In this document: positions 1 to 15,654 of the stretch, in pieces
Position numbering within the stretch: the stretch's first letter is position 1
Layout of the letters: every line of letters begins with the position of its first letter
Made by a program: the position numbers and the translations under genes
Notes under the pieces: model-generated
Told to the model about the DNA's origin: nothing
The model's input: the letters and a program-made list of their open reading frames with translations, nothing else
The model's database searches: none
DNA from: an uncultured delta proteobacterium
Lineage (GTDB): Bacteria; Desulfobacterota; Binatia; UBA9968
Assembly (NCBI GenBank): GCA_963767275.1
Contig: CAVYDL010000006.1
Span: 296,379-360,378, forward strand
DNA length: 64,000 nt
Direction of reading: 5' to 3'

Positions 1-71
1 TACTGGCGATGGTCAGGGCGGCAGTGCCGTGGTATGCATTAACCAATTTCACCGCGGGATGGAGAATCCTC

Positions 72-1502
72 ATGGCTCAAGACATGCGCAGTTGGATCGA
101 TCAACTCGAGAAAGCGGGGCTGTTGGCGCGCATCACCAAACCTGTCGACCCGCGCACGCAAATGGGCGCGTTGCTCTGGCAGGCGCGTGATCGGGGCTTA
201 CTGTTTGAAAATCTGCCGGGTTATCCGGGTTGGCGTTGTTTAGGGCAGGCGCCCGGGGACGTGGCGTTGGCGCCGGTGGCGTTCGGCTGTGAACGCGATC
301 AAATGATTCCCGAATTTGTCCGGCGCACGGAAACTTTGGGCAAGACGCGGCTGGTAGAAACCGGGCCGGTGCAGCAAAAAGTTTTACTCGGCGACGCGGT
401 TGATATCACCAAGATGCCGATTCATCAGGCCGGCATTCGCGACGGCGGGCCATTCATCGGCTCGGGTTTGATGATCACGAAAAATCCTGAGACCGGCCAG
501 CGCAACCTGAGCTTTCATCGGTTACAGATGAAGGAACCGAAGAAGACCGGCATTTTGCTCTATCCGCGCCACGCCTGGGCCAACTATCAGATGTATGAAG
601 CGCAGGACAAACCGATGCCGGTGGCGATCATGATCGGCCACCATCCGATGTATTACTTCGCGGCGGCGACGACGACGCAGTACGGCGTCGATGAATTTGA
701 GATCGCTGCGGCTCTGCTGCAAGAAGATGTCGAGCTCGTCAAATGCCGTACCGTCGATCTTGAAGTTCCCGCCTGGGCCGAGATCGTGCTCGAAGGCGAA
801 ATCCCGCCGAAGATTCGCGAACCGGAAGGACCGTTCAGTGAGTTTCAGGACTACTATCTCACCGGCTCCGGGCAAAATCCCATTGTCAACATCAAAGCGA
901 TCACCATGCGCAACGATGCGATCTTCAAAAACGTCCAGAATGGCACCGAAGTCGAGGGCTGCGTCTATCACAAAGTGCCGATGTCGGCGCAGATCCTGCG
1001 CCGGGCGCGCAGCGTTGGCGGCCTCGCCGATGTGCGCAACGTGTTAGTCATGCCGGGCATCTTTGGTGTGGTGGTGCAGATGAAGCCGCGCTACTTCGGC
1101 GAGGCGAAAAATGTCTTGATGTCGGTGCTATCGAGCGAGTACCAGCATCCCAAGATCGCCATTGCAGTCGATGTCGACGTGGATATTTTCAACTATGCGG
1201 AAGTCTTGTGGTCGATCAACACCCGGGTCAACCCGTCGGAGGATATCGTGACGATACCCGGCGCGAAGATCCACGCCATGGACCCGTCTTGTCCAGAGTT
1301 CGGCCATCCGGGTGCCCCGGGCTGGCATCGGGTCGGCGGCAAGATGATTATCGACGCGACCAAGCCGCCGGAGTGCGACGCCCAACGGCGCAAGGAATTC
1401 GAAAGGCTCAAACCTGTGGGCTGGGAAACTGTGAAGCTAGAGGATTTCTTGCCGGCAGGGGCGCCGCCATTGCGGATTAAACCGAAAATACCGATGGATT
1501 AA
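72..1502 (+). CDS. UbiD-family aromatic-acid / 3-polyprenyl-4-hydroxybenzoate decarboxylase
   Basis: ORF 9..1502. First ATG is at 72, preceded by GGAGAA at 61-66. The roughly 480-aa product has UbiD-family sequence blocks (recognised by eye, no search run). Confidence 0.8.
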   Translation: MAQDMRSWIDQLEKAGLLARITKPVDPRTQMGALLWQARDRGLLFENLPGYPGWRCLGQAPGDVALAPVAFGCERDQMIPEFVRRTETLGKTRLVETGPVQQKVLLGDAVDITKMPIHQAGIRDGGPFIGSGLMITKNPETGQRNLSFHRLQMKEPKKTGILLYPRHAWANYQMYEAQDKPMPVAIMIGHHPMYYFAAATTTQYGVDEFEIAAALLQEDVELVKCRTVDLEVPAWAEIVLEGEIPPKIREPEGPFSEFQDYYLTGSGQNPIVNIKAITMRNDAIFKNVQNGTEVEGCVYHKVPMSAQILRRARSVGGLADVRNVLVMPGIFGVVVQMKPRYFGEAKNVLMSVLSSEYQHPKIAIAVDVDVDIFNYAEVLWSINTRVNPSEDIVTIPGAKIHAMDPSCPEFGHPGAPGWHRVGGKMIIDATKPPECDAQRRKEFERLKPVGWETVKLEDFLPAGAPPLRIKPKIPMD

Positions 1503-3415: not shown

Positions 3416-6400
3416 TCACTTCATGTTGAAGTCGACGCGATTGGGTTTGCCTTTGACCTTGGCTTGTTCCTCGTTGCTCAGCGGTTTGGCGGCGACGATG
3501 AAGAGGCGGTCGGCGCCGACTTGGCCGCTAGCCAGCAAGGCGTCGCGCACCGCTTGGGCGCGCTGATTTGCCAATACCCCAAGGTCATCGTCAGTCGCTT
3601 TGGCATGTTGCATCATCAGCCTTTCCATCTCCGCCACCGGTAAGTCGACCGCCAGGCCGATTACGTTGCGCGGTTTGGGAAAATTTTCTTCGCCATAGGC
3701 GGCCTTCAAATATTTCGCGTACTCGTCCTTGTCGAACTGAATGTCGTCGAGCGATCGTTGTGCCTGTCCCTGGCGCACCAGGTCGCGCAGCTTTTGCGCC
3801 TTGGCCTTGCGCTCGATGCCGACTCGCTTCAATCCTTCGAGATCGCTCGCCGGATCGGCTCTCCCGGTCAATTCCAATTTGATCGACGGGCGATTGTTGA
3901 GGCCCTTGGCCAGGGCGGCGATTTTAGTCTGCGCGGCTTGATTCAAGTTGGCGCGGCCGTTGTCGAATTCAACGTAACTCAACTCCTCGCCGCTGCCACT
4001 GCCGCCGCTGAACGCCGCGCCGAGCAGCGAGAAGGGCGCGGTGACGGCTCTGGTAAGAATGTTAACGATCATGCGCCAGATGATGCCGCCGACGCTGAAC
4101 TGCGGATCGTCCAGCGACCCGCTGATGGGCAGGTCGATATCGATGACACCATTGCGGTCCTTTAACAGCGCCACGGCAAGCAGCACCGGTAGTTTAGTCG
4201 CATCGGGGCTTTCGATTTTGGGGCCGAAAGTGAGCTGGTTTAAGATGATTTTGTTTTGGGCGGTCAACTTGCGATTCTCCAGTTTGTATTTGACGTTGAA
4301 CGATAGCTTGCCTTTCTCGATACCGTAACCGACGTAGCGCCCAGAATAAGGAGTCATCGGGCTCAGCTCGATCTCCTTGGCATCGGCGACTATGTCGAGA
4401 AATAAGTCTTTCGAGAGTGGGTTGAGCTTGCCTTTAATTTCCACTGGGGCGGTGTTGTCGAGCCGGGCTTTGATGTCGATATCGCCGGGCGCCTCCGGCT
4501 TGAGCTCGGAAATCGTTCCCTGGACGCCGGTGAGATTGGCGTTGTAGTTGGGCTTGATGAAAAGGTCGCTGAAATCAATGTTGCCGGCGGTCAGATTGAT
4601 TTTGCCGATGGTGATAGCTTTGTCTGGACCGGTGGCGGGAGCACTTGGGAGTTCAGACTTTTCCGGTGATTTTCCCGCCGTCTTCTCTGTTGCGGCGGGA
4701 TCGATTTTCTTTTCCTCGGCCTGCGGCGTGAGTTTCTGCAGGTTGATCTTACCGTCGGCGCCGAGAATCAGCCGGGAGTAGAAATCGCCAAGATTGATCT
4801 CGCCGATGTTCAGCGTAAAAGGCTCGAGATTGAATTGGACGGCATTCAAGTTGAGGGACTTCCATTTGATCAAGTCGCTGGAATTGCTTTTTTCGACGGT
4901 CGCAAAGTCGGCGACGTCGACGCTGCCGGCGTAATTTACTTTTGCCGGGCCGGCGCCGCTGGCATCGAAAACCAGATTGCCCTTGGTGCCAATATTGCCG
5001 CTGGTGAGCAAGAAGTTAACGCGGTCCTCTAGATAAGGCCAAAATGGCAGGACGTCGATCCCCTGGGCATCGACCTCCAGCTGAGCGGCAACGGGGCGAG
5101 TTCCCACAGTCCCGGCAAATTTCAAGTTCCCTTTGTCGTTGATCGTGGCTTGGAAGGTCGCTTTGCCTCGCGATTTTTCCACGTTGGAAAAATTCTCGCC
5201 GCGGATTGTTGTATTGGATACGACGATACGTGTCGGAGCCGCCAGGGAGCGATCTTCGTAAACAATTCTAAAACGATTGAAAACCACACGCTTGGTTTCG
5301 ACGGTCCAAGACGCCTGTTCTGCTTTCGCCGGTTGCTTGGTTGCGTTTTCAGGTCCGCGCGTCTTGATCAGGCGGGCGTAGCTGATCGTCCCGTCCTTTT
5401 CCCGCTGGACATAGCCGTTGCCATCCCGGGTTTCCACGGAACCAATGACGACCGAACGCTTGCCGACGTCGACCGTGGTGTCTTTCACGGTCAGGAGCGG
5501 AACGCGCCAAAGGGGTTCGGATTCTCCCGGCACGTCCATTCGCAATGATCGCAGGGCTGCGGTCAGCTCGGTAAGTTTTATCTCCGGCTCGTCTGCTTTC
5601 TGCGCGAAGGCGACCTGAGTCGAAAGGTCGAGAAGTCCGTCCTTGAATTCGACGCCGAGCAAATCTTCGTAATACGGTCGGAGCTTCTTGAGTTGCAGTG
5701 CCCGGATTTCCAATTTGCCGTCTGCCAGCATCGGCGTCAGTTGTACGGTACCGGCGTGAGAGAATGATTCTTTTGCGTCAGAGTCAAACGACAGTTCGAC
5801 ATGGGCCTTTTTATCGGCTTCATTGTTGAGTCCCGTGACTTTGAGGCGGACATTGTCAAGGCGTGTCTGGTAGGGCTGCTGCGGTTGTTCGTCGTTGAAG
5901 TGGATCGTTGCGCCATCGATGGCGATCTCTTCGACTTGATACAGGAATGGCTTACCGTCCTCTTTTTTTGCCGTTGCCGTTGCCGGCTGACTGTTGGTCG
6001 ATGGCGTCACCAGATTGGCCAGATTGATTTCGCCCTTGCGATCGCGGCCGACGTGGAGTTCGAGGCCTTGCGACTTGATGGATTTGACCGTCGCTTTGCT
6101 GGCAAAGACATCGAAGGATTCGACCACGACATCGAAGTTGGGCAGCTTGAGCAGCGGCGCGGCGCTTGTTTGCTGCATCTCCAACGCGTTTACGTTGAGA
6201 TCGCCTGACAACGCCAGCACCGGCGCGGCTTTGGGCGCCGACTTGAAGCTCACGGTGACCTTGCCGTTGAGTTGTCCCGAGGGCATTCTGAAATTAAGCG
6301 CTACCGGCGAGTATTTCAGAAATTTGGCGATCTCCAGTTTATCGATCTTGATCCCCAGCGTGCTTTCCAGGGAATCCTTGAACGGCGTGGTGGAGTCGCC

Positions 6401-13025: not shown

Positions 13026-14105
13026 ATGCTGATTCTTTCCAACGATGAGATCGAAAAAATTCTGCCGGTGGGCGCTTGCCTCGACGTGCTCGAAGACGCC
13101 TATCGCGATCTCGGCAACGGCATGGCGGCGACGGTGCCGCGCTATGACGTCTTCAGCCCGACGAAGTCATCAAATGAGTTCTACGAGTACAAGACTATGA
13201 GCGGCGTGCTGCCCAATCGCGGCATCGCCGCGCTGCGGCTCAACTCCAGCGTGGTCAAGTGGTACGAGAAGGCGGGCGGTATACGCAAGGACAAACTGCC
13301 GGTAGCCGGCGGCGACCGCTACGTCGGGCTAATCATGCTGTTCAGCACCGAGACCGGCGAGCCGCTGGCGATTTTTCCCGACGGCTATGTGCAGAAGTTG
13401 CGTGTCGCCGGCGCCAGCGCGATCGCAGCGCGCTATCTGGCGCGCAAGAATTCCACCAGGATGGCTTTACTCGGTTCTGGCTGGCAGGCGAGCGCGCATC
13501 TGGTCACGATGGCGATGGTTCGAGATCTGAAACAGGTCCGAGTGTTCAGCCCGACGCCGGAATCGCGCCGCAGGTTTGTCGATGAATGGCGCGGCCAGGT
13601 TAATGCCGAATTGATCGAGTCGGCTAGCGCCGCCGAAGCGATCAAAGACGCCGACATGGTCGTGTGCACGACCAACTCGATCTCGGCATTATTTCCCGGC
13701 GAGATCTTGGAGCCGGGAATGCACGTCTCATGCGTCAAGCCGTGCGAGCTCGACGCTTTGACTTACAAGCGCTCCGATCCGCTGATTATTCACTGGCGCG
13801 AAGCGAAACCGTTTCAAATCGCCATCGGCGTCGATCCGCAGTCGATTCCCGATGTCGCTGAGGGTTGGCACCATCCGATCACCCGCGAAGACGCGCCGAT
13901 CTGGGATTTGCCGGCGATCTCGCAGTTGGTCAACGGCGAGCACCCCGGACGCACTCGAGAAGATGCCATCACGTGCTTTTGCAATAACGTCGGCCTTGGT
14001 TTGCAGTTCGCCGCCGTCGGCAGTGAAGTATTGGCACGCGCGCGTGAGGCGCGAGTAGGTCGGGAGATTCCGACGGATTGGTTTTTGGAAGATGTGCATC
14101 CGTAG
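13026..14105 (+). CDS. Ornithine cyclodeaminase / mu-crystallin family protein
   Basis: ORF 13020..14105. The ATG at 13026 is 6 nt after AGGAGG (13014-13019). An OCD-family Rossmann segment (MALLGSGWQASAHL) is present. Confidence 0.8.
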   Translation: MLILSNDEIEKILPVGACLDVLEDAYRDLGNGMAATVPRYDVFSPTKSSNEFYEYKTMSGVLPNRGIAALRLNSSVVKWYEKAGGIRKDKLPVAGGDRYVGLIMLFSTETGEPLAIFPDGYVQKLRVAGASAIAARYLARKNSTRMALLGSGWQASAHLVTMAMVRDLKQVRVFSPTPESRRRFVDEWRGQVNAELIESASAAEAIKDADMVVCTTNSISALFPGEILEPGMHVSCVKPCELDALTYKRSDPLIIHWREAKPFQIAIGVDPQSIPDVAEGWHHPITREDAPIWDLPAISQLVNGEHPGRTREDAITCFCNNVGLGLQFAAVGSEVLARAREARVGREIPTDWFLEDVHP

Positions 14106-14437
14106 AATTTCGTTGAGATGCAAACCGCAAAGTTCAACGCCAGATCCATTTAGTAACGATCAAGCACCGCGAATATCATTCTGCGCAGCTACTTGCCCCA
14201 GAGATGCAGACACTTGATCTAACGATTGTCGAAGCTGCACACAACAAAAAAGTATTAGCTGCTGCGCCGCGGCCCTTTCGGAGCCGAGATAAGCGCTAAA
14301 CTCTAAGTTAATTCCGTACAGAAACTGTAAAGTAAATTTACAGAAAAAGTCACACTGTGCATGGAGTCTCAAGCTGTTTCACGATCTATATGATCGAGCG
14401 GCCGCATTGGCGATTGTCTTTTAATTTTCAAGACTTT

Positions 14438-14579
14438 CCCTAGCAGGCTGCTGAAAAACTCCTAGGAGTCCTTCGCCGTCGCTCAGGACGAACGGAGGGG
14501 AGATGATATCATTGATGTTTTTCCGTTCATGCTGAGGTACTCGAAGCATTCCGGACCTTTTTTCAGCACCCTGCTAGGG
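14438..14579. repeat. MITE-like element: 21-22-bp terminal inverted repeats (CCCTAGCAGGCTGCTGAAAAA / TTTTTTCAGCACCCTGCTAGGG) flanking about 100 bp
   Basis: Arms at 14438-14458 and 14558-14579 are reverse complements with one mismatch. An internal 10-bp perfect palindrome CTCCTAGGAG lies at 14460-14469. It sits in a noncoding, AT-richer region. Confidence 0.45.
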
Positions 14580-14732
14580 CGCAGTCGAGCTTTCGGTTCC
14601 ACTGGCGTTTTCGATTGAGCAATTTCAAGCCGTTGATAATTCGACGGATGCACACACAGCCTGCGTGCGCGGTCGCACGACGGGAGTGTAACGTTAAATC
14701 AATTTATTTTTTTCCATCGCTCTATTATCTTA

Positions 14733-14761
14733 TTGACAGAGAAAAAACACTTTCGTAAACT
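14733..14761 (+). promoter_or_regulatory. Near-consensus sigma70 promoter (TTGACA-17-TAAACT) with AT-rich UP-like tract
   Basis: -35 TTGACA at 14733-14738, 17-nt spacer, -10 TAAACT at 14756-14761. Upstream 14701-14730 is about 75% A/T. Confidence 0.55.
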
Positions 14762-14793
14762 AATTGTCAGCAGGGAAAGGAGGTGGTCCAGAC

Positions 14794-14835
14794 ATGATTG
14801 ATTTAAGTACTGGCTGTGAGGTGGCTGAGACTTAG
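14794..14835 (+). CDS. 13-codon small ORF (MIDLSTGCEVAET) with strong SD
   Basis: AAAGGAGGTG at 14776-14785 lies 10 nt before the ATG at 14794. Stop TAG at 14833-14835. Within the ORF, GAGGTGGCTGAG is complementary to the downstream CTCAGCCACC (14890-14899), which allows alternative pairing. Confidence 0.3.
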   Translation: MIDLSTGCEVAET

Positions 14836-14903
14836 GCTCTAGGCGGCGACTCTGAATGGAGATTCGGGCCTAGAACCTGAGAATCTCCCTCAGCCACCGC
14901 AGT

Positions 14904-14956
14904 GGCCCGCTGCACCGGTCGCGCAAGCTGCCGAGTGTAGCGGGCCTTTTTATTTT
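14904..14956 (+). terminator. Rho-independent terminator (GGCCCGCT...AGCGGGCC + TTTTTATTTTT)
   Basis: 8-bp GC-rich stem at 14904-14911 / 14939-14946, followed by a T run to 14956. The T run overlaps the stop codon of the convergent HEAT-repeat gene. Confidence 0.6.
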
Positions 14957-15654
14957 TGCAGCATCTTAAGTGCTGCATCGGCGCTTTTTTTGATCTGCCC
15001 ATTGCCGCTCCGGCTCGCTTCATTCAACGCCCGCATAAATTCTCCGCTTGGCGACCCTAAACTGGCCAAGGTTACGGCGACCACATTCTTCACGCGGTCA
15101 TCTGCATCATGCAAATAAGTCGCTAGCAGCTTTTGCCGGACGGCAGCATCGACATCGGTTCTTACTTTCAGACTGGTTGCGGCGGCGACCCGCACCGTCG
15201 GTTCCGGATCTTCCAGGGATTTCAACATGGCCGCGCGGCTTTGCTCGTCGTTCAGCGCCAAATCACGCAGGCAGTAAAGCGCCATGCGTTTCTGGTTGGC
15301 GCTGCCGGTTGCACACAGCTCGGTCAGCAAAGGGACCACGGCGCCGACCTGTTGAGCGATGCGGACTAGCAGAAGGCCGTTAGCCCAGCGAATATCCGGC
15401 TCGCGGTGATCGAGGGCGCCGAGCAGCGTGCGAATCACCACTGCCGAAGGCTGGGCTTGATGGCCGAGAACGTAGGCGACCGGCCAATAGTTTCCGTGCT
15501 CCGCTTCGCTCAGGCGATTATGAAGCGCTTGTCTAACAGTTTCAGAAGTCTCCGCCAATGCGATTAGTTTGTCGACGGCGGCGCGGATCGTCGGCTTGTC
15601 GGGATGATCGAGGGCGGCGATGAGATCGGCAATCTCGCGTGGTTCGGTTGCCAT
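14950..15654 (-). CDS. HEAT/PBS-lyase-repeat protein
   Basis: 234 aa of repeated helical HEAT-like units (DPEPTVRVAAATSL, DADDRVKNVVAVTLASLG). Confidence 0.65.
   Translation of the reverse strand: MATEPREIADLIAALDHPDKPTIRAAVDKLIALAETSETVRQALHNRLSEAEHGNYWPVAYVLGHQAQPSAVVIRTLLGALDHREPDIRWANGLLLVRIAQQVGAVVPLLTELCATGSANQKRMALYCLRDLALNDEQSRAAMLKSLEDPEPTVRVAAATSLKVRTDVDAAVRQKLLATYLHDADDRVKNVVAVTLASLGSPSGEFMRALNEASRSGNGQIKKSADAALKMLQK

Follow-up and report, generated by a model that had tools for sequence, protein, structure and literature searches.

A probable Ms_IGR-5-related small RNA gene with a conserved 13-codon reading frame in soil bacteria labelled Binatia

The window, the whole 64,000-nucleotide stretch of DNA that was analysed, derives from a 467-kb contig of a soil metagenome and has a G+C content of 56.8%. 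Between positions 14697 and 14957 of its plus strand lies a compact unit composed of a promoter, a Shine-Dalgarno (SD) sequence, a 13-codon open reading frame (ORF), several helices and an intrinsic terminator. The adjacent gene, on the minus strand (14950-15654), encodes a HEAT-repeat protein of 234 residues and its stop codon (14950-14952) is placed inside the T-tract of the terminator. It is followed by a gene for an M24 Xaa-Pro peptidase. The sequence-only reading of this DNA had pointed out that the next gene is convergent and that no gene on the same strand lies downstream, and the overlap of the HEAT gene with the terminator bears this out. Proteins at least 90% identical to those of the window are mostly labelled Candidatus Binatia, which indicates that the host is not an actinobacterium. 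Proteins identical to those of the window also occur in one NCBI metagenome-assembled genome (accessions HYJ...) that bears the label 'Candidatus Limnocylindria bacterium', probably an inconsistency of binning or labelling.

The promoter is of the sigma-70 type, TTGACA-17 bp-TAAACT (14733-14761), with the -35 box at 14733-14738 and the -10 box at 14756-14761. The -35 box is perfect and ten of the twelve consensus positions are matched. An A+T-rich tract resembling an UP element, read from the sequence, occupies 14697-14732 on the 5' side of the -35 box. The near-consensus promoter and its A+T-rich tract had been recognized in the sequence-only reading. As a single site the promoter is not above chance, since two promoter-like sites occur in 2.5 kb against 1.6 expected. 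We judge it to be real because of its conservation in relatives, with TTGACA-17/18-TAnnnT kept in 121 of 126 Binatia-type copies, 14-15 nt to the 5' side of AAGGAGG. Across 85 distinct relatives the 25 nt preceding the -35 box have an A+T content of 67% compared to a background of 44%. The predicted transcript of about 183-189 nt (14769-14957, plus strand) would begin 7-8 nt past the -10 box and end in the U-tract after the terminator.

The strong rho-independent terminator that had been proposed is likewise present (14904-14957, plus strand). Its hairpin (14904-14946) is G+C-rich with 18 bp, and TTTTTATTTTT, a T-tract of the form T5-A-T5, comes next. A run of at least four T residues follows the hairpin in 121 of 130 relatives. 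Promoter and terminator, both part of the self-contained unit proposed earlier, are kept in most copies. A second terminator-like hairpin with a T-run (14968-14986, plus strand) is found 10 nt past the first, in the part of the HEAT gene that encodes the C terminus, and could either serve as a back-up terminator or have arisen by chance.

A covariance comparison had been suggested as a check on the unit. A scan of positions 14100-15000 evaluated by E-value matched 14769-14953 to the Rfam family RF02471 (Ms_IGR-5, "Actinobacteria sRNA") with a score of 39.9 bits and E = 1.9e-7. The match is full length and collinear, covering positions 1-184 of the 184 in the model. The score is below the curated gathering cut-off of 45 for RF02471, and the Rfam scan at gathering thresholds gave no match within the window. 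ARAGORN detected no tRNA or tmRNA in the window, nor was there an Rfam match to tmRNA. Binatia-type relatives score from 29.8 to 49.1 bits against RF02471, and one of nine exceeds 45. A scan of GTDB genomes with a 27-base pattern drawn from three shared motifs returned at least 120 loci. All 120 of the matches listed are from Actinomycetota, and ten of these loci score from 71.6 to 185 bits against RF02471. In the reverse direction a model, R1, derived from Binatia-type copies only, recovers 27 of 29 actinobacterial loci at E<0.01, a result that is supportive only as the loci had been pre-selected by 27 shared bases.

The sequence comparison argues firmly for homology, and the architecture is shared. 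Both the window copy and RF02471 present a 5'-terminal extended SD (AAGGAGGUGRUCC), then an ORF of 12-13 codons that ends E-V-A-x-x-stop, a helix (P2) in which GUGAGGUGRCUG pairs with CAGYCACC, one or more variable hairpins starting from the stop codon, a GAAUYC linker and a terminator directly 3' of P2. The differences are that the window clade is labelled Binatota rather than Actinomycetota and that its score falls below 45. Its ORF has 13-14 codons with a CxxC motif rather than 12 codons, P2 is closed by A-U and G-C pairs rather than C-G, and an alternative hairpin is specific to it. The clade also displays a consensus sigma-70 promoter, a U-tract terminator and a fixed HEAT neighbour. The taxonomic scope given for RF02471, Actinobacteria, is not matched by the lineage of the window. 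The window copy represents a branch of a known orphan family that lies below the threshold and in another phylum, and we consider it very probable that the unit is a real, Ms_IGR-5-related gene for a translated small RNA (sRNA).

The family has been encountered experimentally in Actinobacteria. Ms_IGR-5 corresponds to IGR-5/ncMSMEG15794c of Mycobacterium smegmatis, a member of a set of sRNAs from that organism confirmed by northern blot and 5' RACE. A homologue is expressed in Streptomyces lividans according to RNA-seq, and in S. avermitilis the homologue forms its own sRNA transcription unit that is not cis-regulatory. The family is described as sRNA and has been recovered by Hfq co-immunoprecipitation. 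Ribosome footprints have been reported on homologues in M. abscessus and M. smegmatis, with the warning from the same authors that footprints on non-coding RNAs can be artefacts of ribonucleoprotein particles. No functional study of Ms_IGR-5/RF02471 was found in the literature searchable here.

The copy in the window falls in a clade of its own, encountered in metagenomes. Searching metagenomes for the version specific to this clade gave at least 120 loci and, together with others, there are 133 Binatia-type copies of which 104 are distinct. Among the 121 metagenome loci with room for a HEAT gene, 117 have one that is convergent with the element and adjoins it, at HEAT identities of 39-99%, and the same convergent arrangement is observed in every relative fetched by way of the neighbouring genes, down to 58% identity of the HEAT protein. 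The gene on the other side of the sRNA varies among loci L135-L254. In Actinobacteria the neighbours are different again, with pabC-like and sulfurtransferase genes in mycobacteria, pdxH and citA in Streptomyces, and we found no gene neighbourhood conserved across the actinobacterial loci.

Does the unit regulate the HEAT gene? It could be an antisense partner with an overlapping 3' end that terminates, stabilizes or interferes with the transcript of the HEAT-repeat/M24-peptidase operon. The stop codon within the T-tract and the persistence of the convergent HEAT gene to 39% identity are in keeping with such a role. However, there is no HEAT neighbour in Actinobacteria or on contigs labelled Terriglobales, the overlap amounts to a few bases only, the hairpin lacks a U-tract on the minus strand, and overlapping 3' ends will stay linked even when they have no function in common. 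We regard this explanation as improbable.

A leader-peptide transcription attenuator for a downstream gene is very improbable. The short ORF does overlap helices directly 5' of a terminator, and a small CCAC-loop-GUGG hairpin could compete with the 5' arm of that terminator. Against this, no same-strand gene lies 3' of the element in any lineage examined, the next gene in the window is convergent and overlaps the terminator, the downstream genes differ in Actinobacteria, and the S. avermitilis data class the homologue as an sRNA unit. That a classic attenuator is unlikely had already been argued from the window, and the relatives, in which homologues were inspected for a position upstream of a regulated gene on the same strand, agree. 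Rather, the promoter, the terminator, the convergent next gene and the differing actinobacterial neighbours together indicate a stand-alone unit, a genomic independence that the sequence comparison supports well. The sequence-only reading had favoured a stand-alone sRNA with a micro-ORF, a view strengthened by homology to a family of independent sRNAs, by the missing same-strand follower and by retention of the ORF in 253 homologues.

Three divergent copies are without a HEAT neighbour, namely L177:3491-3750 (plus strand), L234 (minus strand) and L192 (minus strand). Their ORFs are of 19, 16 and 12 codons, respectively, ending in E-V-A-E-A/T, and RF02471 detects none of the three at E<0.01. 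Proteins encoded on the contigs of L177 and L234 are labelled Terriglobales (Acidobacteriota), which implies that the family is wider than two phyla. The element in L177 is flanked by a tmRNA gene (1-323, minus strand), cut at the end of the locus, and by a tRNA-Gly gene (3847-3921, plus strand), the latter about 100-200 nt downstream of the element on the same strand. No similar DNA was found in the phage and plasmid collections, so a mobile origin is not supported. The sRNA locus is single-copy, syntenic and chromosomal.

The extended SD, GGGAAAGGAGGTGGTCC (14773-14789, plus strand), is complementary over at least 15 nt, with one G-U pair, to the 3' tail of 16S rRNA. We take this conserved tail to be GGAUCACCUCCUUUC, which was not read from the genome of the window. 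The sequence GAAAGGAGGTGGTCC (14775-14789) is the sole perfect match to the complement of the tail within the 64 kb. Over 15 nt the strong SD said to open the transcript complements the 16S rRNA tail. Bases that flank the core used in the search, AAGGAGGTG, are also conserved, with RTCC next in 87 of 115 actinobacterial copies.

The ORF begins with ATG at 14794, encodes MIDLSTGCEVAET and ends with TAG at 14833-14835 (plus strand), as had been described, and it is intact in all of the homologues examined (133/133 Binatia-type copies and 120/120 of the actinobacterial copies listed). The genome pattern specified no start codon, stop codon or reading frame. In each of the 120 actinobacterial copies listed the start codon is 10-12 nt past GGAGG. 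Taking these copies with that of the window, the start codons are ATG (57), TTG (39) and GTG (25), the stop codons TAG (84), TGA (20) and TAA (17), and the length is 12 codons in 116 and 13 in five of the 121. Binatia-type ORFs are mostly of 13-14 codons, with outliers of 12, 16 and 19. Across all copies the range is 12-19 codons, and in all but two it is 12-14. Indels within the Binatia-type ORFs are all multiples of three, and synonymous changes (ATT/ATA, GAT/GAC, TGT/TGC) are present. The other two frames are interrupted by stops in 85-100% of copies, a control that is only partly independent as frame 0 is open by construction. The interchange of start and stop codons, the indels in multiples of three and the fixed spacing from SD to start are hard to explain without translation, and we consider this strong comparative evidence that the mini-ORF has been selected for translation.

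These observations weigh on the idea of a purely non-coding sRNA, in which the SD-like 5' end and the ORF would be there by chance or act only as pairing or structural sequence. That the family is described as sRNA and was recovered with Hfq, and that a GAAUC(C) linker is conserved across phyla, would suit such an RNA. It is difficult to reconcile with start codons confined to ATG, GTG and TTG, stop codons confined to TAG, TGA and TAA, insertions and deletions that preserve the frame, and a spacing from SD to start fixed at 10-12 nt in 253 copies. We judge it somewhat more improbable than a role in partnership with the HEAT gene.

Third-position G+C at codons 2-4 is 9-31% in the high-G+C actinobacterial loci L003-L122, and about 70% of these copies use TAG as the stop codon. 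A low third-position G+C at these codons and a preference for TAG are believed to be atypical of such genomes. The former points to a constraint at the nucleotide level around the start codon. On this comparison, the actinobacterial copies may be under RNA-level constraint near the start codon, or may be decoded slowly by design.

Is the peptide itself the product? A micro-protein gene, with a 3' structure that merely stabilizes the mRNA, would explain an ORF that is universally intact and that accumulates synonymous changes. The Binatia-type peptide is mostly M-I-D-x-C-x-x-C-E-V-A-E-T, well conserved within the clade, and in most copies it offers a CxxC that is possibly metal- or redox-active. 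The window copy, however, lacks the first cysteine. The actinobacterial peptides, MVSFRTREVTAG and LIDLWTCEVAAR for example, share only E-V-A with it and the codons for these residues fall on the conserved P2 strand GAGGUGGCU. In addition, the non-coding 3' part shows conservation and covariation across phyla over about 100 nt, which would be needless for a stabilizer. A micro-protein gene is on balance unlikely.

The peptide MIDLSTGCEVAET is acidic, with 13 residues, a net charge of about -3 and no hydrophobic segment. This does not favour a small toxic ORF of the type I toxin-antitoxin kind, which the sequence-only reading had offered as an alternative on the strength of a small ORF with a strong SD within a structured RNA. 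The locus is also of the wrong character, being single-copy, syntenic and chromosomal with no counterpart in the plasmid and phage collections, and no repeat, antisense promoter or antisense partner was seen there. The toxin alternative is extremely improbable.

The whole RNA folds with a predicted energy of -91.4 kcal/mol (z = -5.4) and none of 200 shuffled sequences is as stable. The first hairpin, P1 (14788-14813, plus strand), is weak, formed by CCAG (14788-14791) with CTGG (14810-14813), and has the start codon in its loop. In Actinobacteria P1 (RUCC.../...GGAY) extends to 4-9 bp with covarying extensions and holds the 3' extension of the SD together with the start codon. Support is weak in the Binatia clade, where 32 of 58 sequences cannot form the middle pair.

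P2 brings together GGTGGCTGAG (14820-14829), which covers ORF codons 9-12, and the anti-SD-like strand CTCAGCCACC (14889-14898), both on the plus strand. In the window copy the helix is extended by 14813-14817 and 14899-14903. The ORF-internal strand had previously been matched with this downstream partner and the pairing holds in 97.9% of cells among 58 relatives. A change from C-G to A-U between phyla is visible in the alignment. At the free R-Y position the actinobacterial copies have G-U in 74, A-U in 21, G-C in 21 and A-C in none, whilst the tenth pair occurs in U-A, G-C and C-G forms.

P3 (14831-14881, plus strand) is a hairpin of 13-14 bp in which 14831-14844, including the stop codon, pairs with 14868-14881. 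It is paired in 95.7% of cells in the 58 relatives, with compensatory changes at two pairs, and between phyla both sides have changed in 11 of 12 pairs. An alternative hairpin, GGAGATTC/GAATCTCC (14858-14888, plus strand), pairs 14858-14865 with 14881-14888 and carries the conserved GAAUC(C) linker motif in its 3' strand. It is paired in 90.6% of cells in the 58 relatives, with a compensatory change of GC to AU. In the free RNA its predicted stability falls short of that of P3 by about 21 kcal/mol, and constrained folding produces the alternative hairpin when the stop region is covered by a ribosome. The alternative hairpin and full P3 cannot coexist given a linker of 0 nt between them. An H-type pseudoknot coexisting with P3 was considered and is ruled out by geometry, a 0-nt linker being set against the span of a 14-bp helix. 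Base pairs between the 5' leader and the U-tail at the 3' end, which appear in some minimum-energy folds, were also set aside, as they need bases past the terminated end and are absent in Actinobacteria.

The sequence-only reading described P2 and the GAGATTC/GAATCTC hairpin as mutually exclusive. They are in fact nested and compatible (14820-14829/14889-14898 and 14858-14865/14881-14888). The second of these pairings does exist, and its conflict is with P3, a helix which that reading had not listed. In Actinobacteria there is no above-chance counterpart of the GGAGAUUC/GAAUCUCC pairing, the complementarity of the P3 interior to the GAAUYC linker being 4.25 nt as opposed to 4.1 nt in shuffled or cross-paired controls. 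This control-level value indicates that the alternative pairing is specific to the Binatia-type clade.

For P2 and P3 the proportion of paired cells in the 58 Binatia-type relatives is 93.9%, compared with 27-54% for slid partners. The cross-phylum alignment has 89% of cells paired compared with 30-47% in slid controls, and 20 of 29 pairs have changed on both sides. Its covariation score is 0.297 compared with 0.112 for shuffles and was reached by none of 500, although the alignment behind it had been fitted to the structure of the model. On comparative grounds P2 and P3 covary across phyla.

How might such an RNA work? We favour a stand-alone translated sRNA that acts as a translation-gated fold switch or ribosome decoy, and rate the chance that this is correct as about even. 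From the near-consensus promoter, transcription would begin 5-8 nt before a 15-17-nt complement of the 16S 3' tail and, as the complement extends to the whole of that tail, very strong capture of the 30S subunit would be expected. In the untranslated fold the last four ORF codons would form P2 with the downstream anti-SD-like strand CUCAGCCACC, and the stop codon would be held in the base of P3. A ribosome translating the ORF would melt P2 and the 5' arm of P3. The freed strands could then form the alternative hairpin GGAGAUUC/GAAUCUCC, whilst the CCACC strand could pair with the 5' SD. When the end of the ORF is masked by a ribosome in constrained folding the 3' strand of P2 does pair with the 5' SD, a pairing of 5-6 bp only. 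The RNA would flip between untranslated and translated folds in a manner that limits its own reloading, and the signal would be the act of translation, not the peptide. We infer capture of the 30S subunit, the fold switch, which derives from the folding model, and a regulatory output from these features. The conserved, unpaired GAAUC(C) motif is the only lead to base-pairing targets.

The arrangement can be compared with three known kinds of system. Dual-function sRNAs such as SgrS/SgrT, RNAIII/hld and SR1/SR1P combine a translated small ORF with a structured non-coding part. The window family resembles these in having a transcript of sRNA size with a small ORF and a conserved, structured non-coding part, but its ORF is far shorter, at 12-14 codons, and lies at the very 5' end, preceded by a complement of the full-length anti-SD. 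In leader-peptide attenuators such as trpL, hisL and ermCL, translation of a short ORF remodels helices beside an intrinsic terminator. Translation would necessarily do the same here, yet the unit has neither a downstream regulated gene nor a diagnostic run of codons. The tmRNA is stable, structured and ribosome-engaging, its very short reading frame lying between helices or pseudoknots. A structured, ribosome-engaging RNA with a very short frame amid helices is what we propose for the window unit, although it lacks a tRNA-like domain and carries its own SD and start codon.

A wider interpretation is that the family represents an ancient, cross-phylum, ribosome-engaging RNA, a decoy for or sensor of anti-SD-competent 30S subunits, found in Actinomycetota and on contigs labelled Binatota and Acidobacteriota. 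We hold this to be doubtful, and less likely than the micro-protein. Were it correct, the RNA would titrate or report free 30S subunits, shifting the balance between SD-led translation and translation of leaderless or weak-SD messages, or alternatively would couple another process to translational capacity. It would then rank with housekeeping RNAs such as 6S RNA and tmRNA and not with ordinary target-specific sRNAs. A ribosome decoy of this kind would amount to a new class of regulator with a global effect on translation.

Until now Ms_IGR-5, an orphan sRNA, has been treated as specific to Actinobacteria. Homologous units occur in abundant uncultured soil lineages of other phyla, and routine annotation misses such units as the scores are just below the Rfam cut-off. 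Every copy examined has the mini-ORF, and the end of the ORF with its stop codon is locked in covarying helices. The universal mini-ORF, the complement to the full anti-SD tail and the span of several phyla appear not to have been described in the papers searchable here. The translation-gated fold switch, or 30S decoy, is a concrete model that can be tested with the Mycobacterium and Streptomyces homologues.

One further structure in the vicinity deserves mention. An imperfect palindrome of 142 nt at 14438-14579 has arms of 38 nt that are 76% complementary. It occurs once in the window, is absent from the 253 other loci and has no match in Rfam. It folds as one long hairpin of -75.8 kcal/mol (z = -6.7), and could be a MITE-like element or a structured RNA.
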